DNA of 63,795 nt, the filler included, from Licmophora abbreviata (taxonomy: Eukaryota): the NCBI GenBank assembly GCA_900291995.1. It is 20 parts of 20 records of this genome, joined end to end, with 100 filler letters (N's around TTAATTAATTAA, not from the genome) between each part and the next. Parts side by side here need not be neighbours in the genome. Positions count along the whole stretch, not along the records: positions 25,672 to 42,969 come from OLMU01005672.1; 19 more parts are not named here. One strand, 5' to 3'. Below are positions 25,572 through 43,747 of the stretch, in pieces (the first letter of the stretch is position 1; each line of letters begins with the position of its first letter). The translations under genes were made by a program, and so were the position numbers. The notes under the pieces were generated by a model. That model worked only from the letters and a program-made list of their open reading frames with translations. It was not told where the DNA came from and did no database searches.

Positions 25572-25913
25572 NNNNNNNNNNNNNNNNNNNNNNNNNNNNN
25601 NNNNNNNNNNNNNNNTTAATTAATTAANNNNNNNNNNNNNNNNNNNNNNNNNNNNNNNNNNNNNNNNNNNNTCGCAAGCCTCAAAAAGAAAAAAATCCAG
25701 AATGGCGCCACGTTGACTCACTCACTCAACTCAACTCAACTCTCAACTCATCCTCGCGTCGTCCACAACGCTGCTGTTGCTGTCGCACGCCCTCTTTCGC
25801 AGTCTTGCCCTCTCGGGGCCTTCCTTCTTGGTCTCGCCCGCCTGATTAAAACTCTCTCCGGCTTTTCAAATCCGAATTTTTGACTCCAAATTGAGAAAAA
25901 TACAGAATAAAAA

Positions 25914-27935
25914 ATGACGACGACGAGCACAATATCACGTTTGTTCTTTTTCTGCAGTCTTGTGGGACTTTGGGGCAGCCTGACATGGACGCAATCTCAT
26001 GGGTTTTCATATAGCAACAGTAACAAGAATCCTGTGAGAAGGACGACCACTCGTCGATCGAGTCATCGACTGAAGAACTACAATTCCGGAGGACGGCACC
26101 GTCGCGGTCTCTGGCTCTCTGGTAGCAGTGATACTAGCAACGGCAGCGATAGCAGTCCAGAACAACCACCCCCCGACTCATCATCACCGCCCTCCACTCA
26201 TAGTAAAAAACGGCAAGACACTGACGATCTGTCGCAGGAAGGACGCCGAGAGTCTACTACTTTCGAACCAACAGCATCGGCATTCGATGCCTCGGCCACG
26301 CGTGCTACTACCGGTACTAGTGCAGGCATCCCGTCCTACAAGTCTATTCTGCTCTTTACGTCTACCACCATTCTCATTTGGCTGTCGGAACCACTCTTGA
26401 GCTTGGTCGACACCACGGTCGTGGGCATGACATCTACAACATCGGTGGCACCGCTCGCTGCCCTCGGACCTGCTACCATGCTCATTGATTCCTGTGTATA
26501 TCTGTGTTACTTTCTAAGTATCTCCACAACGAATAGTATTGCCAAACACTTGGCAAACAACAACCCGCGTGCTCTGCAACGAACAACGTCCCATGTACTG
26601 GGAGTGGCTACGGTATTGGGAATCATCATGATGGGCATTGTTTATGGCATGGGCCGGCCGCTCTTGACGTGGATGGCGGGAGGTCCAGCACAAGCCTCAT
26701 CCTTGGTACCACTGGCACTGCAGTATTGTCGAATTCGATGCATCGTGGCGCCTCTTGCTATTCTGGGCATGACGGCTCAAAGTATTTGCTTGGCCTGTCT
26801 GGACACGGTCACTCCTGCCAAGGCGGTGGTGGTTGCATCCGTCTTGAACATTGTGGGCGACATCTTGTTGGCCAAGCCATTGGGGATTGCGGGTGCGGCC
26901 ATTGCCACGGCTGTCGCGTCATCCGCCAGTGCGTTGATTCTATTGCAACAGGTGCGAATCAAAACAAAGGCATGGGCGAAAGAAGATTTGTTTCGGTCGA
27001 CAGGTATGAACGGCAGCAAGATGCAGCTCAACAATATCACAAGAGTGATTGATGGGGCGCCAGTAATATTAAATCAAACAGGTGGAGTGGAAACAAGGCC
27101 AGCTTTGTCGTCATTGGAACGCGTAAACGGGAATGATATGACGACGACAACACCAACAAAGACATGCACGGCGAAGGGAGGGTCACTTCAACATCTGCAC
27201 AACGACGAAGAGGAGCAGATTCCCTTTATGAGTTTTCCCGACAAGTCCTCCTTCACCAAGCTCTGTCGTCTGGCCGGTCCTATCTTCTTTGTGCTGTTGG
27301 GCAAGGTGATTTGTTATTCGGCCATGACGTTGCGTGCGACCGACTTTGGGATGGTGCCACTGGCATGTCACAACATCATGATGCGCATCTTCTTTTTCTA
27401 CGCCACATTTGGAGATTCGCTGAGTCAAGCAGCTCAGTCCTATTTGCCTCCAGTGCTGGTAAGAAAGGGCGCGTCCAGAACGAAGTCCGTCAAAACACTA
27501 TTAGGACGTCTCAGCAAAATGGCCGCAGCAATTGGATTTCTGAACCTGACCATGTCCAAGTGGATTTTGCACACGTGCGGGCGATTCTTTTCGTCGAATC
27601 CAGAAATTCTGTCCATGATGCAGCAGCACTCAACAGTCATGAGTCTGGCCTTATTGTTGCATCCATTCATTATGACCTTTGAGGGTGCTATGATTGCAAC
27701 GCAGGATCTGCTCTACATGGTGGCCAACTATGCATTGACTATGGGACTCTTGTTTGGGCAACTCAAGTTTGCTACAACGACATTCGGCGGAGTGTGGGTA
27801 GCACTCTTTGTCTTTCAAGCACTGCGACTGGTACAATTCAGTACGAGGGTGTGGAAGAAGACTGTGCGGAATGGTGAGGGCGACAATGCTGATAGCATTG
27901 CAGATGCATCCTTGCCCGCCCCTGCGGCAGCATGA
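25914..27935 (+). CDS. MATE efflux transporter (DTX46/EDS5-like), probably plastid-targeted
   Basis: WLSEPLLSLVDTTVVG, LAALGPAT, LNIVGD...GIAGAAIAT, GDSLSQAAQSYLP. Signal peptide followed by HG-FS and a Ser/Arg-rich transit-like region. Confidence 0.85.
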   Translation: MTTTSTISRLFFFCSLVGLWGSLTWTQSHGFSYSNSNKNPVRRTTTRRSSHRLKNYNSGGRHRRGLWLSGSSDTSNGSDSSPEQPPPDSSSPPSTHSKKRQDTDDLSQEGRRESTTFEPTASAFDASATRATTGTSAGIPSYKSILLFTSTTILIWLSEPLLSLVDTTVVGMTSTTSVAPLAALGPATMLIDSCVYLCYFLSISTTNSIAKHLANNNPRALQRTTSHVLGVATVLGIIMMGIVYGMGRPLLTWMAGGPAQASSLVPLALQYCRIRCIVAPLAILGMTAQSICLACLDTVTPAKAVVVASVLNIVGDILLAKPLGIAGAAIATAVASSASALILLQQVRIKTKAWAKEDLFRSTGMNGSKMQLNNITRVIDGAPVILNQTGGVETRPALSSLERVNGNDMTTTTPTKTCTAKGGSLQHLHNDEEEQIPFMSFPDKSSFTKLCRLAGPIFFVLLGKVICYSAMTLRATDFGMVPLACHNIMMRIFFFYATFGDSLSQAAQSYLPPVLVRKGASRTKSVKTLLGRLSKMAAAIGFLNLTMSKWILHTCGRFFSSNPEILSMMQQHSTVMSLALLLHPFIMTFEGAMIATQDLLYMVANYALTMGLLFGQLKFATTTFGGVWVALFVFQALRLVQFSTRVWKKTVRNGEGDNADSIADASLPAPAAA

Positions 27936-28131
27936 TTGCAACAACACAAGAGGAAAACCAATAGCGAAAAAATGGAACGTTTTCGGTACAGCTACTTATA
28001 TACTATAATATGAGACATTGTCGTCGTCATGTCCCGCCTGTGTTCACCACTACCATTGTCCCTTGCTTTAAACTGAGTGTCTCGTCGCAAATGATTCGAG
28101 AGCTGCTATTAACTCACAATCATTCATTCTA

Positions 28132-29089
28132 TTAGGGCCACTTTGTCAATTCGATAACCTTCAACAGGATTGGAACACCGGTTGTGACTTGCCAGGCAAA
28201 GAGAGCAATGCCACCGATATTGGCCCCAATGTGAATGGTCCGAGCCGTGTCGTTGCCCTTGATCATTGCTGGGACGGTCGAAACTGCGAGCGCCCACAAG
28301 ACGACCAAGCCAGCGCCGGCGTACAAGTGAGGTCCGGGAAAGAGTTTTCCGGCACGAGCGTAGGTATTGAGCGGGCCCTGTGTAGTACAGAGAGAGAGGG
28401 ATACCGGGAGTGAGAGTGGTACCACGTTGAAGCATGACTAGATGAGTCCCCAATACTATCCTACTAGCCTACTACAACCCCCTCGTGCGTACCTCAATCG
28501 CAAAGGCCGTTCCCACAAAGGCCAAGAGCGCTCCCTGCGAAAAGTGTTTGTCCCGAGGACTCTTGGAGACGAGATCCTTGCGCTCCTTGGTGAGACTGGC
28601 AATCTCCGCTTCCGTCCCGAGAGCCGCCTGTAGTTGCGCGATACTTCCGCCGCTTTCGTTCTTCTTGGCCGCGTCCAGAGCCTCCTGGACCGTCTTGAAT
28701 TCACCAAGATCCGGTAGAGTCTTCTTGAGAACACTAATGTCGTCCCCAATAGTTCGCTGTCGACGCCACTGGAAGCCAAGGACAGCGGTGTAGACACTGA
28801 ATGCGAGGAGTCCAAACATGGTGAGGGGGTGCAAGAGAGAGCCAATTCGGCCCTCGAAAAGACCCCAGTCTGGACTGCCGTTTGCAGTCAGGATGGTCGA
28901 CGACTGCGTCCCGATGGCGGTCGCGACAGAACTGGCCGTTTCGGCAAGAGACGCAGGATCCATCAAGTGAAGTTTGGTACTCGTACTGGTAGCAGCGCCC
29001 CCCGAGAGCGGCGGATGAACCGGAGCAAAGGCCGAAACCGACGAGCCCAGCGTCGAAGCGGAGAGAAGAAACAGAACTGACACGCGCAT
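28132..29089 (-). CDS. DUF4079-family plastid membrane protein, 2 exons (intron 28378-28492)
   Basis: VSA-FAP presequence; LLHP...GFQWRRQR. A GT-AG intron joins AFAIE to GPLNTYARAGKLFPGPHLYAGAG. Confidence 0.85.
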
Positions 29090-29703
29090 GCTTCAAGAGA
29101 GTCAAGTACAGTACAAGATAGAGTGAAAGACTGCGAAGAGCAACGAAGATTGGAGCTGAGGCACAGCTGTAGACTATCAATGCGAAGCTGTTTTTACCTG
29201 GTGGTGCGCGGCAAAAAACGTCAGTCAGCTCCCACAACTGAGTCACTGTTTTCTACGTGGGAGTCAGTACTGAATCTACGTTAGGACGTTTGGACCCGGA
29301 TTTGTGTGCTCCTTGAGCATATCATACCTGGTACCGGCATCACACAGTATGAAACAGTATGCGTCTACTGTTTGCTGCTTTTCTTCTTGTAAGCTTACTT
29401 GACCGATTGACTGCTCTGGCGCATAGGCTGACGGTATGATACCGAACATAGAACACACGTCTACGGTATCTTTCCAATTTTTTAGCTAGCTACGTATAGC
29501 TCTTCGTACAAGGTAGGTAGAGACACGATTGCCACTCTAGCTGCGGCTCAATACGATACTGTTTGCATTCTTCCTCTAGTCGAAAGAAACACGCGCGATG
29601 AGCTCGATCATTGCACGCGGTACCAATCCTTCTCGGATTCAGAGCGTTGAAACTTAGAATATAGTATAAACATACACTCTCGCCTGATGCCTCTACCATC
29701 ACA

Positions 29704-30567
29704 CTACGGCGTCATCATGTGTATTGTCCCAATCATGTATCCGGCGTACGCCCCCAACAAGTGCCACAGACCATGATTGACAATGTACGGCCACCCTCGT
29801 TCCCATACCCAACTCAGACACAAGCACACAACACTCAGTACCATGGCCACAAGTGCCTCCATGGGAAACAGGGACGGATTGGTCGTGAGTACATACGTCA
29901 GGGCTGTCAACAGAGTACACGCGGCCACAATGTAGTCCAACATGAGTGCGACTCGAACTGGTGCTTGGTCGGGACCGAGATTCAACTGTCCAAAGTGATA
30001 GGCAAAGGACGCGACACTCGCAAGCTCTGTAAGTGTTCCGAGCAGCACGTCTCCGTGCAATTGCAGTAGTACGCCAACAATGGTATAGGCCACGTTGGTG
30101 GCTAAAAAAGCGAGACCCAGCGGTGTCTTGTCCGTTTCAGGAGTCAAGTCAGCGTATGTGAGCGCCCATCCGTCTGTGGCGTCGTCCAGTACGACTGCTA
30201 TTGGCGTAAGCATGCTACTTAGATTGCTGGGAATGCCACTCATCAAGCTGCTGCTGTCGCGAGAGCTCGTCGAGCCATCCTTCGACGGAACCGCCGAGTT
30301 TGGTGAGGATGTTTCACCTTCTGTCTCCTCAATATCCTGAAAAAATCGGAGCTGGAGCTTCATGGATTGAGAAGGAGCGTCTTCAACGGCTCTCTGGCGG
30401 GGAGAGCGAAACAATACAGTCTTCCTCGTGGCAATCGTAGCGACGACGGGCCTGCCACGAAAAGGAGGCGCAAAGGCGAGGCCCCTGTCACTCCCCATTG
30501 TCCATAGCAGGCACAGTAGCAGTCTGCTGGTCACAGGCATCATATTTCTGCTTAGTTCCATCGTCAT
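29704..30567 (-). CDS. plastid-targeted membrane protein with CREST-superfamily-like motifs
   Basis: GLA-FAP presequence; TM region with SFAYH, LDY and HGLWH. Confidence 0.6.
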   Translation of the reverse strand: MTMELSRNMMPVTSRLLLCLLWTMGSDRGLAFAPPFRGRPVVATIATRKTVLFRSPRQRAVEDAPSQSMKLQLRFFQDIEETEGETSSPNSAVPSKDGSTSSRDSSSLMSGIPSNLSSMLTPIAVVLDDATDGWALTYADLTPETDKTPLGLAFLATNVAYTIVGVLLQLHGDVLLGTLTELASVASFAYHFGQLNLGPDQAPVRVALMLDYIVAACTLLTALTYVLTTNPSLFPMEALVAMVLSVVCLCLSWVWERGWPYIVNHGLWHLLGAYAGYMIGTIHMMTP

Positions 30568-30820
30568 GATTCGAAGCAAACGACAACAACGGGCAAAACT
30601 AAGACAAGGTCGTCGTGATGAATGGGAATGGATGAGTTTGAGATTTTGTTCTTTGAAAAAGGGAAAAAAGTGCGCTACACAAACATGACGTCGACGGAAT
30701 TCGGAATTCATGTCTTTTCTAGAATAGTGTGTGTCATGGAACGGACTATCATCCCCGTAAAGTAGACTATGTGAAGATGGTAAAAGGTAGACCTATGATA
30801 GCTTCGAAAAGGTACTGAAC

Positions 30821-32545
30821 CTAGACCGTTGTATTGTTCATGTTCGTATCCTTGACAAACTCTTCAACGCACTCAAAGTCCAGGAGCACCTGCTCCCGAT
30901 ACGCAAATGCCAGTTCCACTAGCGTATCGACCCAAACCTTGAGCATCTTCTCATCCTTTTTGAAGATGCTCTGAATCACATGCTTGAAATCTCCCGGCGC
31001 CTTGGCAACAGTCCCACGCACATGCGACGTGGCCGTCGCGACCGCAACTTGCTCCATGAAGTCGATGAAATCATCAGGATCAGTCAAGTCATCCAAATCC
31101 GGAGAATCCTTCCAGGGCGAGCGTTGTCGTATCGAAAAGGGCTGCAGCGTGCCCTGACTAGCATCGGGTAGCATTATCCATCCGGTATACGGGTCCGTGT
31201 AGGATGTCAGGCGTCGCTGTGCTTCCACGACACGAGCTGCGTCGTTGGCAAACAAAACTTGATACCAGGCTGTCTCGTCCAGACTCAAGACGCTTGTGAC
31301 AGCCCCAGGCGGTTGATACTTGACATCGAGAATTATTGATCCATGTTCGCGACTGCCCTTGTCTAGTAATCTATCTTTTCCCTTGAGCAAGACAAAGTAC
31401 CGATCGACTCCAAACGAGCCAATTCCTGATCCTACTCGCTCTGCAACATCCAAAACACTGAAAAAGTCTGGATCCCACGTGCCATGAACGTTCCACCCGA
31501 TCTTCATCAAGGTGGCACCATAGTGCGTGGAAGTAAAGGCATTTCGAATCGCGCGGTCCGTCTCGGCAGACACAGCTGCTAGATTGGTCTTATCATGCGG
31601 CATATTGACAGGTCCCTTGCGAAATTGACGAGAGCTTGTCGTGCGATTGACAAGTGTAAACTTTTCAAGCTGCTTCGGTATGCTCTCGTCGTTCTGGACG
31701 TCGCGAAGATACTTGTCCAGCATCCCATAGGCTGTTTTCGGAGTCAACTCGAACAAAAGGGCCTTTTCATTGTCAACATAGTTCAAAACAGCTTTAATGT
31801 ACGACTCTGCAAATGCCTTCAAGGCTTTTTTGGTCTGTTTGTGACTCAACTCGTTGGTGACGGCATGATTGCATACACTAACTGCAATTCGAAGTATGTC
31901 TACTTGGAAATCATAAATAGCAGCCTCATCAAAGTCATTGACCCCAAAGACGATATCGTCATGTCGATTTCTCCACGCACCAAAGTTGGAGAGATGCTGA
32001 TCTCCCGTGACCCACGTGTAGGTCGACAGGGGATCGAGCGCATGCTTGTTGTCGTTCTGCTGAAACAATAATTGCTGCAGCGGCGCTCCCCACTTGTTCA
32101 CTGCATAATCTTGCCAAAAGATGAGTGCCGTGGCACGATAAAAGACGTTGGGATCGGTGGATTGTGCCTCGTAGCGTAGTTTCAGTTCCTGGGGAGTCGC
32201 GTCCGTGTTGCGCTCCTGGAATCTTGCCAGGAGCCAGTCGCAGCGCTTCTGTACAGCGGGGGCAGAGGAGAAGAACTTCTCTTTGCCAAGCAAGGGGAGA
32301 GAGGAGGAATCCATCAATACTGTTCTTTTATGAGCCTTGTTGCGACGAAGCGGCCATGCCCCCAAAAGCAGAAGCGAAGCGCAGGCGAACGGCATGATCC
32401 ATCGCCGACGACGCCAGAAAGCTCCATCAGTGCCAACGAGGCGACAGTATTGTCGTTCGTCCGTTGCTTGAAGATGAAACTGCTGCTGCTGAAAATCTCC
32501 GCTCCTCACGAAAAGCAGAGACGTGGCTTCATTCATCAGCGGCAT
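30821..32545 (-). CDS. DUF2252-family (kinase-like fold) protein with N-terminal membrane anchor
   Basis: FYRAT, GDQHLSNFG, VNDFDEA, GSGIGSFG, LDVK, RQRSPWK; intronless. Confidence 0.8.
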   Translation of the reverse strand: MPLMNEATSLLFVRSGDFQQQQFHLQATDERQYCRLVGTDGAFWRRRRWIMPFACASLLLLGAWPLRRNKAHKRTVLMDSSSLPLLGKEKFFSSAPAVQKRCDWLLARFQERNTDATPQELKLRYEAQSTDPNVFYRATALIFWQDYAVNKWGAPLQQLLFQQNDNKHALDPLSTYTWVTGDQHLSNFGAWRNRHDDIVFGVNDFDEAAIYDFQVDILRIAVSVCNHAVTNELSHKQTKKALKAFAESYIKAVLNYVDNEKALLFELTPKTAYGMLDKYLRDVQNDESIPKQLEKFTLVNRTTSSRQFRKGPVNMPHDKTNLAAVSAETDRAIRNAFTSTHYGATLMKIGWNVHGTWDPDFFSVLDVAERVGSGIGSFGVDRYFVLLKGKDRLLDKGSREHGSIILDVKYQPPGAVTSVLSLDETAWYQVLFANDAARVVEAQRRLTSYTDPYTGWIMLPDASQGTLQPFSIRQRSPWKDSPDLDDLTDPDDFIDFMEQVAVATATSHVRGTVAKAPGDFKHVIQSIFKKDEKMLKVWVDTLVELAFAYREQVLLDFECVEEFVKDTNMNNTTV

Positions 32546-32831
32546 GTCGACCGGCTTTCAATCGCAGACTACTTGGAACGTTTGCTTGCTGATGTCCTTT
32601 GGTTTAATGTTTGTGCTCAACCCGCAATCCGCGTCACTTGAAAGATTAGAGATTAGTTTAGAATAGGGTTATGAGCTAAAAGATCTCGCTCACCTCTTTG
32701 GCGTCTTGGCGCACCTCTCGGAGTTCGTGTATGATGTCATACCACTTATGCGAGGTACGTGGGCGTCTCAAATTTGGGGTGAAAATTGAAAATTGAAAGA
32801 TTCTTCATTTGATCCATTTTGGACGACGACG

Positions 32832-33758
32832 ATGATGAACCTGATGATACGCCGACGACGGCGACTGAGCCGTTCTCCTTGCCATGGCTTCTTTGGCGAC
32901 TCGCGTCGGCTGCGACATTCATGCGCGACACTGCTACTAATACTTGTGGCCATCCTAGATTTCGTTCAGGCCTTTTCGTGTCTTCGTTCGCGTCGCCTTT
33001 CGGCCAACCTGCTGCTGTGCAAGGCAGCAGCCACTCCTCCTGCTGACACTACGAGCGATGATCCATCCTCCCAACCTTACCCTCAGCTGAACATTGCCTT
33101 TGTCACTGGAAATGCCATGAAGGCACGTGAACTGAATATGATTTTGAACCAGAACGGAGCCACACAAGGCCCGACGAGCGAGACATCTCTTGTCAATTTG
33201 CGCATCCTCACGGTCGATCTTCCTGAAATCCAAGAAGTCAATACAGAGGCCATTGCAAAAGAGAAAGCCATGCTCGGTGCACAACTCGCCGGTGGACCGT
33301 GTGTCGTGGAGGACACCTCACTCAAGTTTCATGCTCTGGGGGGCATGCCAGGTCCTTACATCAAGTGGTTTCAAGACAAACTGGGGTCCGAAGGACTCTA
33401 CAAAATTCTACACGCCTACGAGGACAAGTCTGCCACGGCCGTATGTACTCTTGCCTTTTGCCCTTATCCCCATGCTGATCCAGTACTGTTTACGGGAAAA
33501 ACTCGAGGCACCATTGTCGCACCGCAGGCGGGACGTGGCTTTGGATGGGACGGTATCTTCGTCCCAGAGGACCACGAAGAACCTTTTAGTTGCATGACGA
33601 CTGCGGAAAAGAATGCTCTGTCGCATCGTGGCAAGGCAGTTCGACTGTGGGCTGACTGGTTGGGAAAGAATCAACAGGAACTATGGGAGCGACAGGAAGG
33701 ACGACCGGCGATTGGACACAAGGGATTGGACTTTAAAAGTACGAGTGCGGAGCAATAG
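32832..33758 (+). CDS. ITPA: inosine triphosphate pyrophosphatase (Ham1 family) with N-terminal targeting extension
   Basis: FVTGNAMK, DLPEIQ, VEDTSL, GMPGPYIKWF, FGWD, KNALSHR. Hydrophobic stretch followed by VQA-FS. Confidence 0.9.
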   Translation: MMNLMIRRRRRLSRSPCHGFFGDSRRLRHSCATLLLILVAILDFVQAFSCLRSRRLSANLLLCKAAATPPADTTSDDPSSQPYPQLNIAFVTGNAMKARELNMILNQNGATQGPTSETSLVNLRILTVDLPEIQEVNTEAIAKEKAMLGAQLAGGPCVVEDTSLKFHALGGMPGPYIKWFQDKLGSEGLYKILHAYEDKSATAVCTLAFCPYPHADPVLFTGKTRGTIVAPQAGRGFGWDGIFVPEDHEEPFSCMTTAEKNALSHRGKAVRLWADWLGKNQQELWERQEGRPAIGHKGLDFKSTSAEQ

Positions 33759-34052
33759 ATAGTGGGTATAAGCGTATGAAGGTCTCCACTCTAGCGCAAC
33801 ACTACCACTTGCCCTTGACGGTCTCCAGTCTATCGGGCGAACTTGACTACCAGCTTCTCCTTCAAGGCTCGACTTTTGTCGTGGCAGCTCTAGCCTGTCA
33901 TACGGAAACAGCAGAGCTCGTATGATACCAGAACGTGCAACGCGATGAGAACCCGCGGACAATCCGAAGGGCCCAAAACCGAATTTCAAGAAATTGCACA
34001 TATCTTTGGTGTCATCTCTCCACCGAACGATGTAAGCGCACAGTCCTCGACC

Positions 34053-35690
34053 ATGACACTTCGAAATCACATTTTCAGGCTTCTCCTCTCTCTCTTGTTA
34101 TGTTGCACGGGGACGAAGGCCTTGTCGTCAAGAGAAAGACGACCAGCCAAGCGCGTTGCAGTTATTGGCACCGGAATCGGTGGCTTGTCGGTCGCTCACG
34201 CTCTCACAAATTCTCCCTTGCTGGAAGAAGAGTACGGCTCTTTCAAGTTCGAGGTGTCCATGTTTGAAGCTCGAAAGAAGCTCGATACCAAAGCCGGTGC
34301 TGGAGTCCAGCTTAATGGAGGCTTGGCGGCGCTTGGGAAGATCAATGGCAAGGTCCAGCGCGCGGTGCTGGATGCTGGACTCCCTGTTTCTCAGATCAAG
34401 AGTCGGAGCAAGCCCTGGTCCGACTCGAAACCGTTCGAGGAGTTGTTGCAACTGGACCTTGGGGACATCGTAAACAACGCTGGTGGAGAAGTTTCTCAAA
34501 ACTTGATCCAAGATGGAGAGCTTCTCTGGACTGCCATTATGCGAAGTTCCTTGCAGGAGACGCTTTGGAAGACACTTCCATCTACCACCCGGCGCACTGT
34601 CCAGTTCAACAAGGCTTTGATAGATATAGTGCCACAAGCGGATGGGAGCATATTGTGTGAATTTTCGGATGGAGCGACGGCAGGTCCGTTCGATATTGTC
34701 GTGGGAGCGGATGGGGTCAAGAGTGTATGCAAGGAGTATATTGAAACGGGCAGAATCTCCGCAGACGCGAATGAGGAAACCAAGTCCGCTGCTTTGTACT
34801 CTGGAATACGAATAAGATATGCAGTAGACGATGAATGGACGCCGCTAGACAAGGAGGAGTCAAAGTCAGCGTCTCTAGTACAGTACTTTGGGGATGGAGC
34901 CAACGCGTTGGACGGAACCTACGGAAATGGAGCAGGTCGACCCAGGTCCAAAATCGCTTTCTTCTCGTTTCTTGACAAAGATTACACTGGTCCTTTTCGC
35001 AGGAAAGAAGCTGTTGAATCCGCCAAAGTTGCCGACGAAAACGTGGATTGGCGAGAAGGAGAAAGGCGCAATCGCGAAGCTTCCAGAACGGCCATGATAA
35101 ACGATGTGCAAGAATACAACATACCATCGATGGACATTGACCCAATCGTGAACGCTGCAGATAGATTTTTTGAAGTTGGCATTTACTTTCACAATCCCTT
35201 TAGTCTGGCTGGATGGAGTAAGAAGGTTTCTGGGAAAAATGGCGGGGTGGTTACGCTTTGTGGCGACGCCGCGGTATGTCTTTGGACGGATTGACATGGA
35301 TGTTGTCATTGCAACTGCTGACACAAACTCACACATATATACATGCACTCCTCATTGCAAAAGCATACGATTCCTCCTTTCTTGGGTCAGGGATCCAACC
35401 AAGCCATTCAAGACGCTTACTGCTTGGCCACCAAACTGTACGAATACAACGCCAATATTGCGCAAGGTGTTGATGGCCCGGGTCTGGATAAACTTCTCAA
35501 GGACTACGAAGGAACCAGATGGCTCCATACGTTTGTTATCTTGTTGAATACGTGCTTTCTTGGATACCTCGAGACTGGAGGTGAAAATGGTGTTTACGCC
35601 AAATTTCGGGACTTGTTCTTCAAGACCACGGGACTGATTGGCGTTGCGCAGCGGGTATTGCTCAGCGCGGCCGTTCCCAAGGTGGAGTAG
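34053..35690 (+). CDS. FAD-dependent monooxygenase (zeaxanthin epoxidase/salicylate hydroxylase-like), intron 35274-35363
   Basis: VIGTGIGGL and VVGADG motifs. Splicing restores GDAA|HTIPPFLGQGSNQAIQDA. Signal peptide present. Confidence 0.88.
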
Positions 35691-36050
35691 CTATACTTGT
35701 CTAGCAACCTACAGAACGATTTGCCTGGTACTGACATGGGCCTAGGCGATCACTGAGCTCTAGCTAGAGAACAGCTAGGCTACCGTATTCGTACTGTAAG
35801 CTAATAGCTAGACTACATGTCGTACTTGTACCTGGTAACATGAGCAAGGCTTGTCGACGGTCTGTCTGTCACCATTTGAAAGACGGATCCGAATAAATTG
35901 AAAATGGCCTGTTTTCTGTTCTCTGTTTTTCCGACGATGATGATGCCTGTCACGACAAATCCAAAATACGAACCCGATGAATCTTCGTCTCCCACACTTC
36001 GTCTCTTTTACTATAGCTCTACCATACAGCTTCTTGAACAGTCTGTTAGC

Positions 36051-39000
36051 ATGCGAAGCTGCAGAATCGCGATCCTAGTACTTCTGACAGCTGTCTATGC
36101 CGGTGAGGCCTTCCAATTCCCGACACATCAACGAACTGATGTCTTCGTGTCGTTGCCAACAAGAAAGACCCAACTTGGTGTGGGGAAAGCCATGTACTTT
36201 GCGGACATTGCCCCCTCGGACGAGGAGGCTTCCTCAGGAATACTGGCTGGAAAGTCCCCCAAAGTCGTTAGACTCCGCAAGAAACTGCAGGAGGTCTGGA
36301 ACAGTCCCGAAACCTGGCCTGTGGTGCTTGTCGGACCAAGCGGTTCAGGAAAGAAAGATCTTGCCGAAGAAATATTGAATCGTCTGCCCTCCTCGCAAAC
36401 AGAAAACATCCACAGGTTCGCAATGGATGATGCAGTCAATTATGTCGACACGATGCTTGGGACAGAATCCCAACCTGGACTACTCGATCTCATGTGCGAC
36501 CAAACGAACACCACGTTGGTCCTTACGAGCTTTCAGTCCCGCACTGTCGCAAGCGCCGACGAGTTTGGGCGCCGCCAGGAACTGTACCAGACTATGGTAG
36601 GCATTGTCAAGGATCGAGCCTTTTACAGCCGACACGAGGGCAAAACGAAGTTTTTCGCTCCACGCTTCATCGCGACCTGCAGGGACCCTCCGGACCTTCT
36701 AGACGACATCTCCGAGCTGTTCCTCGTCAAGGTTCCGGCATTGGGTTCTCGCACACAGGACATGGAAGCCATTGCCGTATCCAAAATCAAGCTATTTGAG
36801 AAAAGTCACGGCCTTCAAGACGTGAGACTAAGTTCTCAGGCCACCCATCGGCTCTTGGATCATCGTTGGGAAGTTATGGCAAACGAATTGGACAAAGAGC
36901 TCGACCAAGCACTCGACTTGCTAGCCATCGAAAGGCAACGAGATCCGGGAGCACCGAACATTCTACAATCAAAACACATGCTGGTGAACTCTTTCAATGA
37001 AGCAATGCGTCACCGATTGCTCTATGAGTTTCCAGTTCTACGAAAAGTCATCCGATCGCCGTGGGTCTTTGATCACACGCTCCGCTACATTGTTACGCCC
37101 GCCTTTGTGCTGACGCTCGCTGCCCTGTTCCTCGGTCCCCAAACACGCGATCACAACACAGCGCTAACCTACTTCTGGGCCGGATGGTGGCCCGCCGTCA
37201 TGTTGAGCTACCCATTTCTTGGAAGGATCTGGTGTGCAATTTGTCCCTTCATGGCGGTAGGCAACTTGGCTCAAGAAGCTGTGACTGGACTCGGTGTCGA
37301 ACTGAAGAAATGGCCGAAATGGGTGAAGACAGTGGGCTCGCCATTTGCATTCGGTCTCTTTTGTGCCATATTGATGTGGGAAGAGCTATGGAATCTGCCG
37401 CAGAATGCTACTCTTTCGGCGTATCTATTGTTGTTGATTACAGCGGGAGCCGTGCTCGGTTCCGTACAGTTCGAAAAGCGAATGTGGTGTCGTTACCTCT
37501 GCCCGATTGGAGCTATGTGTCGCGTTTTCGGGACAATATCGCTACTCGAGGTCCGATCGTGGAAGGCCAACTGTGAAGGTTGTACCGATGCGCAATGTCG
37601 CAATGGGAACTCCCCAGCAGTGAGTCCGTCTGATACCTTTGCGATCAAGGGTTGTACGATGGATCTCAAGAACAATCAGCTGCGTGATATGGGAGATGTA
37701 AGAGACGACTCTCTGTGCACCACAATACGTTTTGAAACAATGAAATCTTGCCTCTTATTGCTCACTGAATGCTGCTGTTTCCACAGTGTACTATGTGCAT
37801 GTCTTGCGTCAAGAGCTGCGAGCAAGAAGTACCCGAGCTAAACTCAAGGCCGATAGGGCTCGACTATGGACTGCCGTGGCTCTTGCCCCCCGCACTACAG
37901 AGTCCTGAAAATATGTCTCTGTCACAAGTCGAGACCAACTTTTGGCTGGGGGCCCTCGTGACGACGTTGCAAGGATCCATTTTCGTTCATTATATGCCCA
38001 CACTGCTGTCAGACATTGGCATGAATCCCGTGATTGCCGCTGCCACTCCGGGCCTGAATCTGCCGTTTGTGGCTCATTCTGCCGTAACGGCCGTTCTCTT
38101 GGCTCTCCCCGGTCTGACGAGTTTGGCCGCAGACAAGGCCTCAGTTCCGCTAGAGTTCACGATCACCTCGTTGCGCGCAAAATTGGAACGGATGACGGAT
38201 GCGACTGATCAAATTGTAGTCATGGAGATTTACGACTCCATTATGAACTCAGATAGGTCTCTGCGGGAGACATTGAAGGAATTTGACCCGGATGGTGATG
38301 GTATGATCTCGCGTTGGGAATGCAAGCAGGCGTTGACACGCTTGAAGATTCCGGAGAGCCAGTGCGAGACGCTCACGGGTCTGATGAAGCGACGTTTCGG
38401 TGATGTCGAATCGGTGTCGGTTGAGTCCTGGCTGGACTACTTGCAGGAGCTTTATGTTACGGCGCGTCAGTCTGAGCAGTCTCGTCTGCAAAATATGAGC
38501 AATGAGCTACAATCCAAAAAGACGTTTGTCGAAATTTTCAACGACCTAGACAAGGACAAGGACGGTTTCATATCGGAAGATGAGTTCACTTCCATGCTAA
38601 GCAATCTGAAGACGCCATTGACAACCCAGGAAAAGCACGAACTGTTCGGCAGCGCCGATCGCCAAGGAGACGGGAGTTTGAATCTCTTCGAGTTTATGAG
38701 CACAATGCGGAAGATCGTTCGCGTTGGCATTCAAGAGATAGGATACGGCTACCTCCCGCTCGCGTGGGCATCTCTCACGGCATACTGGGTGGGTCTTGGT
38801 ATGAAAGAGCTCGGGCTATCGCTCGCTCGACTTCCAGACACCTTGTTCATGGACCCTTCCATAAACCTTCCCCACATTGCCGCCAGTACCGATGTCGTAC
38901 ATGCTGTACAAGCTGTTCTGCTCATTGGGGCCCTTCCAATCTCGATCGGTCTAACGCAAAAGCTCTGCGACGACAACAAAATAGGCCGTGTTCGATTCGG

Positions 39001-39073
39001 TCTGCATGCTCTGATTCAAGTGGCCTTTGCCGCAGAGACGTTACACTTGATGCTTTCTTCAGCCCAGGCGTAG
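36051..39073 (+). CDS. plastid-targeted AAA+ (sigma54-activator-like) / membrane 4Fe-4S polyferredoxin / EF-hand protein, intron 37698-37786
   Basis: GEA-FQ presequence; GPSGSGKK; VPALGSRTQDM; GRIWCAICPF; WCRYLCPIG; spliced DCTMCMSCVKSC; EF loops DPDGDGMISRWE, DKDKDGFISEDE, DRQGDGSLNLFE. Confidence 0.8.
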
Positions 39074-39348
39074 AGAAGAAAACAAGCCGTTGTTTTTGAT
39101 GAAGGGGGACCGGATACCCCGTAAGCACACAAGGTCACAACACGCTGAACTGACTTTGAATAATTGCTTGACGTACGCGACTTGAACGTGGCGTTGGGCT
39201 GGGACAGTACCGGAATTGTGTCCCCACAAGACTACGACGAATCCTCACGTTGCATGACGATCTCCCACAAGGTCGACGCAATTCTTACACTCTTTATCAT
39301 TTTCGATGACGATGCGTGCGAATAATCACAGTACTAGCACTATCTACA

Positions 39349-41124
39349 TTACTTGCTTGTAACAGCAAAGCTATGACAACACTCATTCGCTAGACGAACT
39401 GCTGTCGCTCTCCCAAATTCTTCCCATCCCTCGTCATCGTCGTTGGTGCGTGCGTGACATTGCTGCAGTCGGATACAAGTAGTCGGGCATTGTTCCCAAA
39501 TGGCACCCACCAGTGCTGCGACGAGTGGAGGGCACACGGCATTACCCAACATGCGATACTGTTGCTTGAGTCGAGTCGATGGTAGTGTTGCAAAAGCAGA
39601 AGTTGCTGCTGCTGGTTGTACCGGTACGACGTCCGGCAATCGAAACGAAGCAGGAAAACCCATGAGTCGTGCACATTCGCGGGGACTCAACCGCCGTGGA
39701 TTGCTGCTGTTGTTCGAGGTGCATATCATCGAGGAGGCAGATTGTGGCACCAATTGGGAATTTCCCTTGCCGACCGTGACGCCATAGTGCGAGTCGAGAG
39801 TACTGCAAACGACATTGGGCCAGGCGAGATGCGCAGGTTTCCATCGTCGTCGAGAGAGAAGCTGGTCCATTTGACTATCTGTCAGCGTCAACAAACTGAG
39901 TAAACGTGCGGATGCATGACCAATGCCACCCTGGTGATAGTTGATGACATCGCATGCGCGCAGTTGTAAATCGGGAATGTAGGGAAACTGAAAAAGTGCA
40001 GAGGCATCATCATCCTCCTCCTTGCACGCAGCAACAGCGGGGTGATCTCGTCGTTTCCGTTGAAAGCCCACAAAGAGCAATCGCTTGCGTGACTGAGCCG
40101 TGAGACATCTGGCATTGCAAACCTCATACGAAACATTGTACCCGGCATGCGACAAGTCGGACAGTATTGTTTGCATCGCTCGCCCATTGTCGGTGTGCAA
40201 GAGTCCCGGAACATTTTCCAATAGAAAGGCATGCGGCTGACGCAGCTTCAACACACGAACAATTTGTCGATAGAGAAGTCCTCGATCCTCCTCGAGTCCC
40301 TCCTGAGCCCCCAGGGACGAAAATGGCTGACACGGAAAACCGGCCACCAGCAAATCGTGTGTAGGAATGTCGTCGTCTGGTACAGCACAAATGTCGCCAT
40401 GCAGAAGCGGACTATTGCCACTGCTACTTGAAGAAGAAACATTCGTTGCGCTCATGTTGGACTCATAGATACGACGACAATCAGCATCGATTTCGGAAGC
40501 AAAGACACAGCGCCCTCCGAGCGCTTCGAGGGCGATACCAAAGCCTCCGATGCCAGCAAAGAGTTCTGCAAACGTAAACGACGAGGAGGCGTTACTGATT
40601 GCCTCACCGTTGTTTTCATGCTGCCTTCTTCGTCTTCTTTTGCGGCGTTCTGGATGAATCGTGGCGTCTGGCGTCTCGTCTCGTGGAATATTGGCGGCCG
40701 GTGTTGCGGGCTTGAAAATGACCGACACGTCCTCTCGGTTCAGGAGCTCCTGTAGTTCCGAATCCGGCGGCGGGAGTCGTTGGGATACCGCCGATGATAT
40801 GGCTGATGCGACTCCCGGAACACCGTTGCTACTGCGGGAACTCTCTCTTTTCGTTTCATCATCATCTTCCTGACTCATCAGTTCTGCCTCTTCTTCTACA
40901 GCACTGCAAATCTGGCTAATTTCGCTACACTCGCCGCTGCTCAGTAGCAGCGGAATGGCCATGCGTCCATCCTCGTCGTGTCGATGCGTACGAGAGCCAT
41001 ACCGTCCTTCTAAATGCCAGGGACGAGCTACCCAGTGATTCTGGCGCAGTATAGCATAGGCAGACTTTGTCTGACGAGGGGGAACCAGACAAACGAGCTC
41101 CATGTTGCTGTCTGTACACACCAT
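39349..41124 (-). CDS. C5-cytosine DNA methyltransferase (bacterial-like/DNMT6-type)
   Basis: Motif I FAELFAGIGGF, IV AGFPCQPFS, VI LLENV, VIII QSRKR, IX RECARLMGFP, X LGNAV; intronless. Confidence 0.9.
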   Translation of the reverse strand: MVCTDSNMELVCLVPPRQTKSAYAILRQNHWVARPWHLEGRYGSRTHRHDEDGRMAIPLLLSSGECSEISQICSAVEEEAELMSQEDDDETKRESSRSSNGVPGVASAISSAVSQRLPPPDSELQELLNREDVSVIFKPATPAANIPRDETPDATIHPERRKRRRRRQHENNGEAISNASSSFTFAELFAGIGGFGIALEALGGRCVFASEIDADCRRIYESNMSATNVSSSSSSGNSPLLHGDICAVPDDDIPTHDLLVAGFPCQPFSSLGAQEGLEEDRGLLYRQIVRVLKLRQPHAFLLENVPGLLHTDNGRAMQTILSDLSHAGYNVSYEVCNARCLTAQSRKRLLFVGFQRKRRDHPAVAACKEEDDDASALFQFPYIPDLQLRACDVINYHQGGIGHASARLLSLLTLTDSQMDQLLSRRRWKPAHLAWPNVVCSTLDSHYGVTVGKGNSQLVPQSASSMICTSNNSSNPRRLSPRECARLMGFPASFRLPDVVPVQPAAATSAFATLPSTRLKQQYRMLGNAVCPPLVAALVGAIWEQCPTTCIRLQQCHARTNDDDEGWEEFGRATAVRLANECCHSFAVTSK

Positions 41125-41398
41125 GGTGAAACTTGAAACTTGAAATTGATTTTGAGAATTGAGAATTGGGATGATGGTTTAGTCCAAGTAGTCATACAAC
41201 CTGCAGCGGGTTCAGTGCGAAGGCAACGCGAGGATGTGCATGGCGAGGAACGCCAAAAGGAAAGTTCCAATCTGAAAGACACTGGAGGCAGGACGGTCGG
41301 ATCGACACTCGAATCCATTCGTTTCCATGGTTTTACAGTACACACGGCAGGATGCGAAAGCAACAAGATGCTGCCAGTTAACTCTAGAGCTTTCAAGG

Positions 41399-43747
41399 CT
41401 AGTAGCTGTCTAGAGAGCTTCTGTTAGAAGGTTCAGCAGTGACATGGTCAACCAGAATTTTGAGAAACCTCTCGTCTCCTAGAATTTCCCGGTGATCCGC
41501 ATGTGGCAGCTCATGCACCTGCACATTACACTCCTCGCTCTGCCACTTTCGACATTGCTGAAGGCTGAAGTATGGCACTGTACCGTCACCGGAACGTAGA
41601 ACAGGTTCGTCTTTCTCGTGCACAAGTTGTGGTGATTGATCCGTCTCCAAGATGGAACCATCCTTCATTTGAAAATTGGTGTGGCGCCGGTCGAGCCGAG
41701 CATCAATGTCCATCTCGTGCAAACATTTCTTCTTGTTCTTCTCTTGGACAATCGTTCGTCTACGGTACACGGCAGCAACCTCGGTAGGCAAGTCAATTCC
41801 ATAGACCGCTTTGACCTGTTTGACAGGCGGATCTCCTTCCGAACTCAGCGTCTGGGGACCAAGCGGGTCATTTTCGTAATAATTGTTCATGAGATCACGC
41901 GACCGACTGATCCACTCACTACGAAACAGCTGAACGCCACTCACAGCTTCGTATTGGACAGCTTCGCCTCCATGCCTGTTGCGAATATCCAGAGTGGGGG
42001 CATCTTCGGAAGGCGATCCAACACGAATGTCCGTAATCGCGTCCGTGTCGACATCGTGCGCAGGCGGCTTCCATTCCAGTCGTACCTTGACTGGAATGGA
42101 ACTCGTCTCTCCCATTACAATATCTATTTTCGGCTTTCCTGCCTTGTAGTCTCTCCCAAGCTTTCGGATATCTCCAAAGCGAAGCTGCAAGGAGCACTCC
42201 GCGGGATCATTCGCTGACAGCTCGATATCTAATAGAGATTTTTCTTCACTGTCGGCAAGTAGGGCTGCTGAGCCCAGGGCTGTGGTTACGACTTGCCCAG
42301 CTGCCACCGCAGCACCCTGTACCGCACCACTGACTGTAGGGCGGCTATTCAAAAATCCAATCCTTCTCCAATATTCTACCGGGCAAAGAAGGTCCACAGC
42401 CGACTTGATTCGGTTTGAGATCCACGTGCACAGATTAGACCGACAGTAAGAGTTTCTCACCCGGAAGCCGGGCTCGTACAGACTGATACGTAGGGTCTTC
42501 CGGATTGCCGTCTCCAGCTCAGCCGGAGTTGCAAACGTAAATGTCTCCGAGAAGCTCACCAGGAACTGGTCTTCTCCGGCAAGACTATTCTTTTCGTCTG
42601 TTGGCACATGAAATCTCGAATGCAAAATCTCATCACCATACTTGACCGCCAGTTTCAGTCGCGTTGGCTTGTTACGTCGATGGCTGCCCAAGACTTGCAG
42701 CCCACAGTCAAAGGGCAAAACGGTCACATGCAAGACTCCCTCTCTTCGTAGATACGCAATAGGCCCCAATCCATTCGGCAACATGCGAGGATACATCCAA
42801 GGAAGGCTCCCCCACGTTCTCGCCAGAATCAAAGCTTCCTCTTCGCTCAAGAATGCCTCCAGCCCCATTCGATCTCCAATAACGGTACCTCGCACTGACT
42901 TTGGCGCTCCGACATGCGGTGCTCCCACGACAAAGTATGTGTGCACATGCTGGTCCAACCACGCTTGTCNNNNNNNNNNNNNNNNNNNNNNNNNNNNNNN
43001 NNNNNNNNNNNNNTTAATTAATTAANNNNNNNNNNNNNNNNNNNNNNNNNNNNNNNNNNNNNNNNNNNNGTTCTGTCATTGTCTTGATACATGCGTTCTA
43101 CCTGTTGTATGGTCTTGGTAAAGTATTGATCTCGAGTTTCCAGCACACAGGGCGGTACTCTCCAATCGTAGGGTGCCGCATCCAAATCGTATCCCTCCAC
43201 GTACCCCACTTGCCGCAATGCTGCAATCACATTACTGAAGACCCACGAGGCATTCTTGGCAATCCCATGTTCGACCAAATAATCCACCGCCTGAATTCCT
43301 TTCGTCGGTCGAATTTGTATATCTGGCGGATCACTGACTAAATCCACCTCGCTCAAAATCAAGCTGCAGCCACTTGCTCTTGCACTGATACTCGTCCATA
43401 TACTCTTGATGCAGCTCTTCGTTGTAGTTTTCGCCCAGCTCGTACTTTTCTTCGTTGGCCTTGAGGGCACCGCCAAAGTACAATTTCCCAAATCCGGCGC
43501 TCGAAATGTTGAGCCAAATGCGACGTGCACGAGAAGAAGACGACGACGACGTAGAGGTATTGTAGACGGGAGACTGTTTGACTTCGAGTGCGGAGGACAT
43601 GAATCCGGGAAAAATGAGGACAGGAAGTCGTAGGCGAGTGCTGTGTTGCTTATTTTGGTGTGAATGTTTGGTAGCTGCACCGTTGTTTCGGGGAACAGTG
43701 CCATTGCTGGCAGGCTTCTGCGGTTTCTTTCCGAAAAACGCATTCAT
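41399..43747 (-). CDS. LCAT/PDAT-family acyltransferase (split by spacer 42970-43069; frameshift at about 43363)
   Basis: VLIFPGFMSSAL, PYDWR, GAPHVGAPK, GDGTVP, ADHREIL. The catalytic Ser motif is expected within the gap. Confidence 0.8.

Follow-up and report, generated by a model that had tools for sequence, protein, structure and literature searches.

What does the gene at positions 36051 to 39073 of a 63,795-nucleotide window from Licmophora abbreviata (assembly GCA_900291995.1; "the window" is this whole stretch) encode, and what might a diatom do with a chain that joins a degenerate AAA+ domain, a membrane-bound Fe-S domain and EF-hands? The best reading of the sequence is a nucleus-encoded, plastid-imported membrane protein, an orthologue of the main cyanobacterial clade of cNMP-AAA-polyferredoxins (cNMP, cyclic-nucleotide-binding domain), a clade that is probably FesM. 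As to function, we tentatively prefer, with somewhat less than even confidence, a stromal-Ca2+-gated membrane Fe-S redox conduit in plastid electron flow. The gene lies on a 17.3-kb piece of the window (25672-42969, GC content 51%) and has the following features (aa, amino acids; TM, transmembrane helix):

36051..37697, plus strand: exon 1 (aa 1-549)
37698..37786, plus strand: intron (89 nt, GT-AG, phase 0, between Asp549 and Cys550)
37787..39073, plus strand: exon 2 (aa 550-977 and stop)
36051..36110, plus strand: signal peptide (aa 1-20, Phe at +1; motif judged by eye)
36111..36230, plus strand: putative transit-peptide-like region (about aa 21-60, unconserved, basic at its start)
36231..37010, plus strand: putative AAA+ pseudo-ATPase of the sigma54-activator fold (aa 61-320)
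36333-36356, plus strand: P-loop, kept
37071..37505, plus strand: TM1-4, membrane domain of the NapH/FtrD type
37233-37247, plus strand: CxxCP motif
37488-37505, plus strand: CxxxCP motif
37572..37819, plus strand: ferredoxin-like domain, split by the intron (Cys508, 511, 516 and 535, and CxxCxxCxxxC at 550-560)
37940..38143, plus strand: TM5-6 with His617 and His646
38153..38728, plus strand: diatom-specific EF-hand insert, about 190 aa with four EF motifs, predicted stromal
38285-38320, plus strand: EF1, canonical
38549-38584, plus strand: EF3, canonical
38657-38692, plus strand: EF4, degenerate
38729..39070, plus strand: TM7-9, where the cyanobacterial membrane domain resumes after the insert

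The spliced product (exons 36051-37697 and 37787-39073) has 977 aa and a single stop. The comparative evidence that the gene is real and spliced, as the first-pass annotation of this locus had proposed, is strong and comes from sources other than this organism's RNA. Among 53 diatom-type proteins, which are those with the motif that precedes the junction and include redundant cluster members that are not independent, this motif runs directly into CxxCxxCxxxC in 26, while another 26 break at the exact junction codon with Val (GTN) next, and one behaves otherwise. In six metagenomic loci this site is either occupied by a GT-AG intron of 78 nt (three loci) or uninterrupted (three loci). The length of the 78-nt intron (L081, L082, L086) is a multiple of three, so that unspliced read-through stays in frame in tblastn. 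The uninterrupted member P0149 is an MMETSP transcript labelled complete. In RNA run X1 (share 0.05), five of 30 bins were covered and the junction was uncovered. A reading as two separate genes was rejected on the junction comparison together with the intron-bearing and intronless loci. The position of the intron is common to many diatoms and to three cryptophyte-clade proteins (three of seven break at the same junction position), which backs the tree described below.

Exon 1 is 33-35% identical, over about 89% of its length, to the cyanobacterial cNMP-AAA-4Fe4S membrane family (probably FesM), which bears out the descent suggested earlier for this protein. Like the members of that family, the diatom protein joins a degenerate AAA+ domain of the sigma54 type to a membrane polyferredoxin and is collinear to the C-terminus, with the 12 conserved Cys and two His. 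It differs by its bipartite plastid presequence, its EF insert, its intron, a further eroded AAA domain with a P-loop of the form GxxGxGK, and by the lack of the N-terminal cNMP domain, which is likewise missing in cryptophytes, several green algae and some short cyanobacterial members. By orthology, the protein belongs to the cyanobacterial FesM-like family despite this loss, and it is neither a sigma54 activator nor NapH or FtrD proper; database labels such as nitrogen regulator, calmodulin or transcriptional regulator are misleading.

The phylogeny agrees with this assignment. The tree was calculated from core columns only (35 of 64 rows, LG+G4 without a mixture model, non-cyanobacterial bacteria as outgroup); it separates the algae plus the main cyanobacterial clade from a second cyanobacterial paralogue ("paralogue 2") and the outgroup with support of 99/99, the internal order being unresolved. 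Diatoms and the cryptophyte clade are joined at 100/100, both on long branches, and the Licmophora protein falls among pennate sequences with moderate support, its nearest named homologues being those of the diatoms Amphora (68% identity) and Seminavis (57%). Diatom members are both pennate and centric; green algal members come from Monoraphidium, Picocystis, Trebouxia, Ostreococcus, Edaphochlamys and Micractinium, and other algal members from Symbiodinium, Chromera, Guillardia and Hanusia. Phaeodactylum tricornutum, Thalassiosira pseudonana and red algae were not among the names in the matches listed, most of which bear no species name and of which 30 clusters were opened.

Import into the plastid is indicated by the N-terminus, in which a hydrophobic signal peptide up to Ala20 is followed by Phe and a basic stretch (script and inspection). 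The same pattern of signal peptide and Phe at +1 recurs in most of 32 N-termini inspected by eye, Hanusia included, so that the plastid targeting proposed before stands. A location in the thylakoid is most likely.

The core of the protein is its membrane domain. Pfam Fer4_5 matches at E 2.7e-9, and the NCBIfam NapH model matches exon 1 at E 2.4e-7 and the orthologue P0164 at E 9.8e-13, but the cut-offs of TIGR02163 and PRK09477 are not reached (30-48 bits vs 213-234). The unit of four TM helices with Cys-Pro motifs followed by a ferredoxin domain is common to NapH/MauN, NosR and CcoG/FixG; the diatom protein, however, scores far under the cut-offs of these families and adds five TM helices, the AAA domain and the EF-hands. 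In an alignment of 58 sequences, which represent five groups (13 diatom, 3 cryptophyte-clade, 16 other algal, 13 cyanobacterial and 13 other bacterial rows), twelve Cys never vary, apart from a single gap in one gene model. The first-pass annotation had described CxxxCP motifs and a CxxCxxCxxxC cluster: the second Cys-Pro motif is indeed CxxxCP but the first is CxxCP, and the cluster motif is present but is completed by the four further invariant Cys at 508, 511, 516 and 535. The eight ferredoxin-type Cys probably bind two [4Fe-4S] clusters, and the two Cys-Pro motifs at the membrane edge suggest a further site besides these.

Predicted models contain about nine TM helices, a count derived from helix lengths. 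Oxygenic phototrophs retain four residues that other bacteria mostly do not, namely His617 (37988-37990), His646 (38075-38077), Glu445 and Glu890; these residues are predicted to lie on the non-stromal side and could form a possible metal, heme or pigment site facing the lumen. Among solved structures the cyanobacterial membrane domain found no Foldseek match at E<=0.001; its best Z was 8.2, to unrelated helical bundles, which is no demonstration of a new fold. The ESM Atlas returned cyanobacterial clusters of the same family only (0.84-0.86), and a homodimer prediction for the membrane domain scored 0.01.

The AAA domain has the fold of a sigma54-dependent activator without its working parts. 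While the proposed Fer4 assignment was recovered by profile, Pfam Sigma54_activ gave only sub-threshold matches (E 0.006-0.02), and the AAA assignment comes from structure instead. The AlphaFold2 model of P0164 (65-68% identical to the two exons, mean pLDDT 80.9) matches sigma54-activator AAA+ structures at a Foldseek E of 6.6e-8 and superposes with a best Z of 16.5 (rmsd 3.7, 229 aligned), the best matches being NtrX, FleQ and DmpR; it thus has the AAA+ fold of the bacterial enhancer-binding protein clade. The AAA+ fold and lid are common to the diatom protein and to NtrC, NtrX and FleQ, whereas GAFTGA, the Walker B acids, sensor I, the Arg finger and the helix-turn-helix (HTH) domain are not. 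In an alignment with eight true activators, from which four of 56 chosen rows were dropped where the Walker A pattern was not found, the GAFTGA, Walker B Asp-Glu, sensor I Thr-Asn and Arg-finger segments occur in none of 35 cyanobacterial and algal rows (10 cyanobacterial, 5 green, 6 cryptophyte-clade, 14 diatom) and in all eight controls. A Pfam search of the Licmophora protein gave no HTH_8 match. The earlier description of a degenerate AAA domain with an intact Walker A and no GAFTGA therefore holds, GAFTGA being found in 0/14 diatom rows; the P-loop GxxGxGK is present in 14/14 diatoms vs 2/10 cyanobacteria. We infer a pseudo-ATPase that has probably been dead since before the plastid, although the diatom domain may have retained nucleotide binding.

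The EF-hands lie in the diatom-specific insert. Pfam recognises the EF-hand at E 6.7e-17. All 17 diatom sequences compared, pennate and centric (with three near-duplicate pairs among them), have a canonical EF1 in which every scored position is kept; EF3 is canonical in 14 of 17, whereas EF4 is so in 0/16 and EF2 is degenerate. Of the three canonical EF-hands claimed originally, EF1 and EF3 thus remain, and a fourth, degenerate motif is added. The four motifs form two pairs of one canonical and one degenerate loop each, and EF1 and EF3 have the 12-residue canonical loops and helix-loop-helix pairing of EF-hand sensors. The Ca2+ input proposed before appears likely. The insertion maps to the loop between TM6 and TM7, which measures 15-36 aa in 13 cyanobacteria; in 13 diatoms it extends to about 200 aa, apart from one truncated sequence. 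In all 13 cyanobacteria the loop carries a net charge of +1 to +4. Because the replaced loop is short and basic (positive-inside rule), and from TM parity, the insert should face the stroma like the clusters. An insert of 85-88 aa without EF-hands occupies the same site in Hanusia and Guillardia, and in green algae the site holds 21-96 aa; it therefore tolerates insertions.

In a pattern scan of all retrieved proteins, EF loops follow the Fe-S domain in 27 diatom-type proteins and precede the AAA domain in 11 others; in eight more their place is unassigned for want of the anchor motif, and none of the named cyanobacterial or green algal members has such loops. The 11 proteins (P0076, P0145, P0179, P0224, P0352, P0370-P0373, P0391, P0392) form a clade sister to Hanusia and Guillardia, and their loops sit just before the AAA domain, the position of the cyanobacterial cNMP domain. 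Most of these N-terminal loops are under the Pfam cut-offs, and P0076 has no C-terminal insert. BLAST between the two EF modules finds loop-level similarity only (E 0.005), and a tree that forces the two EF-bearing groups together is rejected (p-AU 0.016, the grouping having been chosen after inspection of the tree and no mixture model used). The simplest reading is that EF-hands were gained separately in diatoms and in the cryptophyte-related clade.

A single replacement of the cNMP input by a Ca2+ input, as had been supposed, does not agree with these observations. The Gly of the phosphate-binding FGE motif is already missing from the cNMP domain in all 62 full-length main-clade cyanobacterial rows, but is present in all 28 comparison rows (27 other bacteria and one paralogue-2 protein); the Arg column was poorly aligned and left uncounted. 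Moreover, cNMP and EF-hands are both missing from Hanusia and Guillardia of the sister clade, and the loss of cNMP therefore most simply predates the diatom EF gain. The diatom EF-hands also lie in a C-terminal membrane loop away from the cNMP position.

In the conduit that we prefer, the AAA domain, the Fe-S clusters and the EF insert would all face the stroma. Electrons from a stromal reductant (ferredoxin or NAD(P)H-linked) would enter the clusters and travel via the two membrane-edge Cys motifs to an acceptor in the membrane or on its lumen side, which might be the plastoquinone pool or a partner complex, in support of cyclic or chlororespiratory flow. The pseudo-ATPase would serve as a scaffold or nucleotide-binding module, while Ca2+ on EF1 and EF3 would shift TM6/TM7 and tune activity whenever high light or oxidative stress raises stromal Ca2+. 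Published work on diatoms reports that stromal Ca2+ does rise under these conditions, that KEA3 and DSP1 carry EF-hands, and that the EF-hand of KEA3 is needed for its activity (PMC11663583; bioRxiv 2021.09.06.459119). Named Ca2+-binding effectors of the diatom chloroplast are few, these two among them (PMC11663583). Both are, like the protein described here, EF-hand-bearing plastid regulators of photosynthesis, but they are unrelated to it, and the analogy covers the added Ca2+ input only.

Loss of FesM affects cyclic electron transfer around photosystem I and growth on glycerol (PMC9003380), and the FesM paper of Xu et al. (2005) is cited in PMC9324425. The function of the family, called unclear in the first-pass annotation, is less so if the name is rightly applied. 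FesM of Synechococcus sp. PCC 7002, the protein of the 2005 study by Xu et al., reportedly combines a cAMP-binding domain, an NtrC-like ATPase and a membrane Fe-S domain. Synechocystis slr1529 may belong to the family as well; what points to this is the shared label "nitrogen assimilation regulatory protein".

Several points weigh against the conduit. The identification of the cyanobacterial family as FesM is presumptive, being drawn from domain architecture, and with two paralogue clades in cyanobacteria the name may belong to either. Members were found in 87 of 301 genomes sampled from the cyanobacterial phylum, so the family is no universal core component. The cyclic-flow phenotype could be indirect, e.g. 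via metal supply. Constitutive cyclic flow is low in most diatoms (PMC11314055); the excerpt of that source does not mention FesM. Our literature search, whose coverage left most subscription papers outside, found neither an algal FesM nor an EF-hand fusion of this family.

The protein could instead be an FtrD-like partner in plastid metal handling, which we consider rather unlikely. Electrons would then cross the membrane to or from a metal site on the lumen side or at the envelope, where Fe, Cu or Mn would be reduced or oxidised for import or cofactor assembly; effects on electron flow would be secondary, with Ca2+ as a tuning signal. This reading draws on the N-terminal half of the membrane domain, which matches the FtrD-like fourth gene of ftrA-(B)-ftrC operons (hhalign 99.1, E 1.5e-18, 199 columns), and on the four phototroph-conserved Glu and His residues predicted on the non-stromal side. 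The homology to FtrD lends some support to the earlier idea of a link to iron. According to PMC7415376, FtrD is the membrane polyferredoxin encoded by an iron import operon, in which it takes the last position (PMC7415376, PMC11966278). Stand-alone homologues of about 450 aa were found in 18 plasmid records, full cyanobacterial paralogues accounting for two of these; of the 13 inspected, five come last in ftrA-(B)-ftrC iron-uptake operons, but the other eight stand in unrelated contexts. FtrD and the diatom protein have this membrane domain, two Cys-Pro motifs and a CxxC cluster motif in common, yet FtrD is a separate gene beside FtrA/B/C with fewer Cys and without AAA domain or EF-hands. Furthermore, the match of the C-terminal half is weak (probability 35-45), FtrD-like rows lack the first ferredoxin Cys set, and none of 80 cyanobacterial loci has an ftrA/B/C homologue within 5 kb, nor was FtrA, FtrB or FtrC found among the window neighbours scanned. 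When iron is withdrawn, the transcript of the presumed member slr1529 goes down at an early stage (log2 -0.74 and -1.17, first two columns; PMC3516471), unlike that of an uptake gene; it is likewise lower in high copper (PMC4182526).

A redox and Ca2+ sensor or scaffold resembling NosR/RdxB, in which the pseudo-ATPase relays the redox state of the membrane without net electron flux, is unlikely in our view, although the AAA fold is kept in all lineages despite its lost catalytic motifs, the diatom P-loop is invariant, and regulatory domains were repeatedly gained or lost (cNMP, GAF and FHA in bacteria, EF-hands twice in algae). The knockout of slr1529, if that gene is a member, fits it too, being metabolically shifted (PMC5318462) with normal autotrophic growth (p 0.74). 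Against a sensor, which the first-pass annotation had put forward, the protein has no output domain of the DNA-binding or kinase type, and its conserved core rather resembles a membrane electron carrier. Gene neighbourhoods in cyanobacteria are not conserved, and membrane-domain homologues exist that stand alone without AAA, which implies a function of the membrane domain itself. Still less probable is an ordinary FesM orthologue with a structural or Mg2+-occupied insert and no Ca2+ regulation: two of the four EF loops are degenerate and the site tolerates insertions, but EF1 is kept without exception and EF loops recur N-terminally in the second clade. For a plastid transcription activator of the sigma54 enhancer-binding type there are the AAA+ fold and the annotation only. 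We hold it to be scarcely credible for a membrane-bound protein without an HTH_8 match; it was rejected on the lost catalytic and sigma54-contact motifs (0/35 vs 8/8).

Within the conduit reading, a bolder version is doubtful: FesM may be an overlooked route from stromal reductant to plastoquinone, separate from PGR5/PGRL1, that was twice put under Ca2+ control, in diatoms via the C-terminal loop insert and in the cryptophyte-related clade via N-terminal EF-hands at the old cNMP position. In that case FesM would let stromal Ca2+ signals of diatoms act directly on cyclic electron flow. With Fe-S clusters, a membrane domain and a conserved putative Ca2+ site joined in a single chain, the protein is a candidate for chloroplast Ca2+ tuning of electron flow.

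The genes flanking the target are unrelated and eukaryotic:

30821-32557, minus strand: DUF2252 protein
32790-33758, plus strand: Ham1-family protein with a presequence-like N-terminus
33894-35690, plus strand: probable FAD-dependent oxidoreductase, intron-bearing, with a Rossmann motif and no Pfam match at 0.001
39349-41178, minus strand: C5 DNA methyltransferase
41399-42969, minus strand: fragment of an LCAT-family gene

Synteny among diatom loci is limited to the upstream FAD-protein gene, found in two of six loci in opposite orientation. The cyanobacteria have no conserved operon either, the commonest neighbour family occurring in 13 of 80 loci once shadow open reading frames are excluded.

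Paralogue 2 (about 900 aa) was found on two plasmids (L091:4663-8300, L092:4645-8336), in both directly upstream of cysteine synthase; DsrE, rhodanese and katG are nearby on L091 and petC, psbA and an FAD oxidoreductase on L092, a setting suggestive of a sulfide or low-oxygen island. Outside the cyanobacteria, other bacteria (one named Nitrospirota) have cNMP-AAA-polyferredoxins with an intact-looking cNMP motif (P0013-P0016, P0215, P0225-P0320), some with extra GAF, FHA or AIM24 domains. Stand-alone homologues of the whole membrane domain occur in Deinococcus and haloarchaea outside ftr operons (L087:5965-7323, L088:5986-7308, L093:5863-7221, L099:4857-6200); the haloarchaeal ones shown have fewer Cys. 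The 1335-aa model P0004 of Discostella appears to consist of two tandem copies fused, with the Fe-S part missing from both, and is probably a tandem duplication with a faulty gene model. The window itself (1-63795) consists of 20 pieces joined by spacers of 44N-TTAATTAATTAA-44N. Its early pieces may originate from other organisms, as their GC content is 56-68% vs about 51% for the piece with the target gene.

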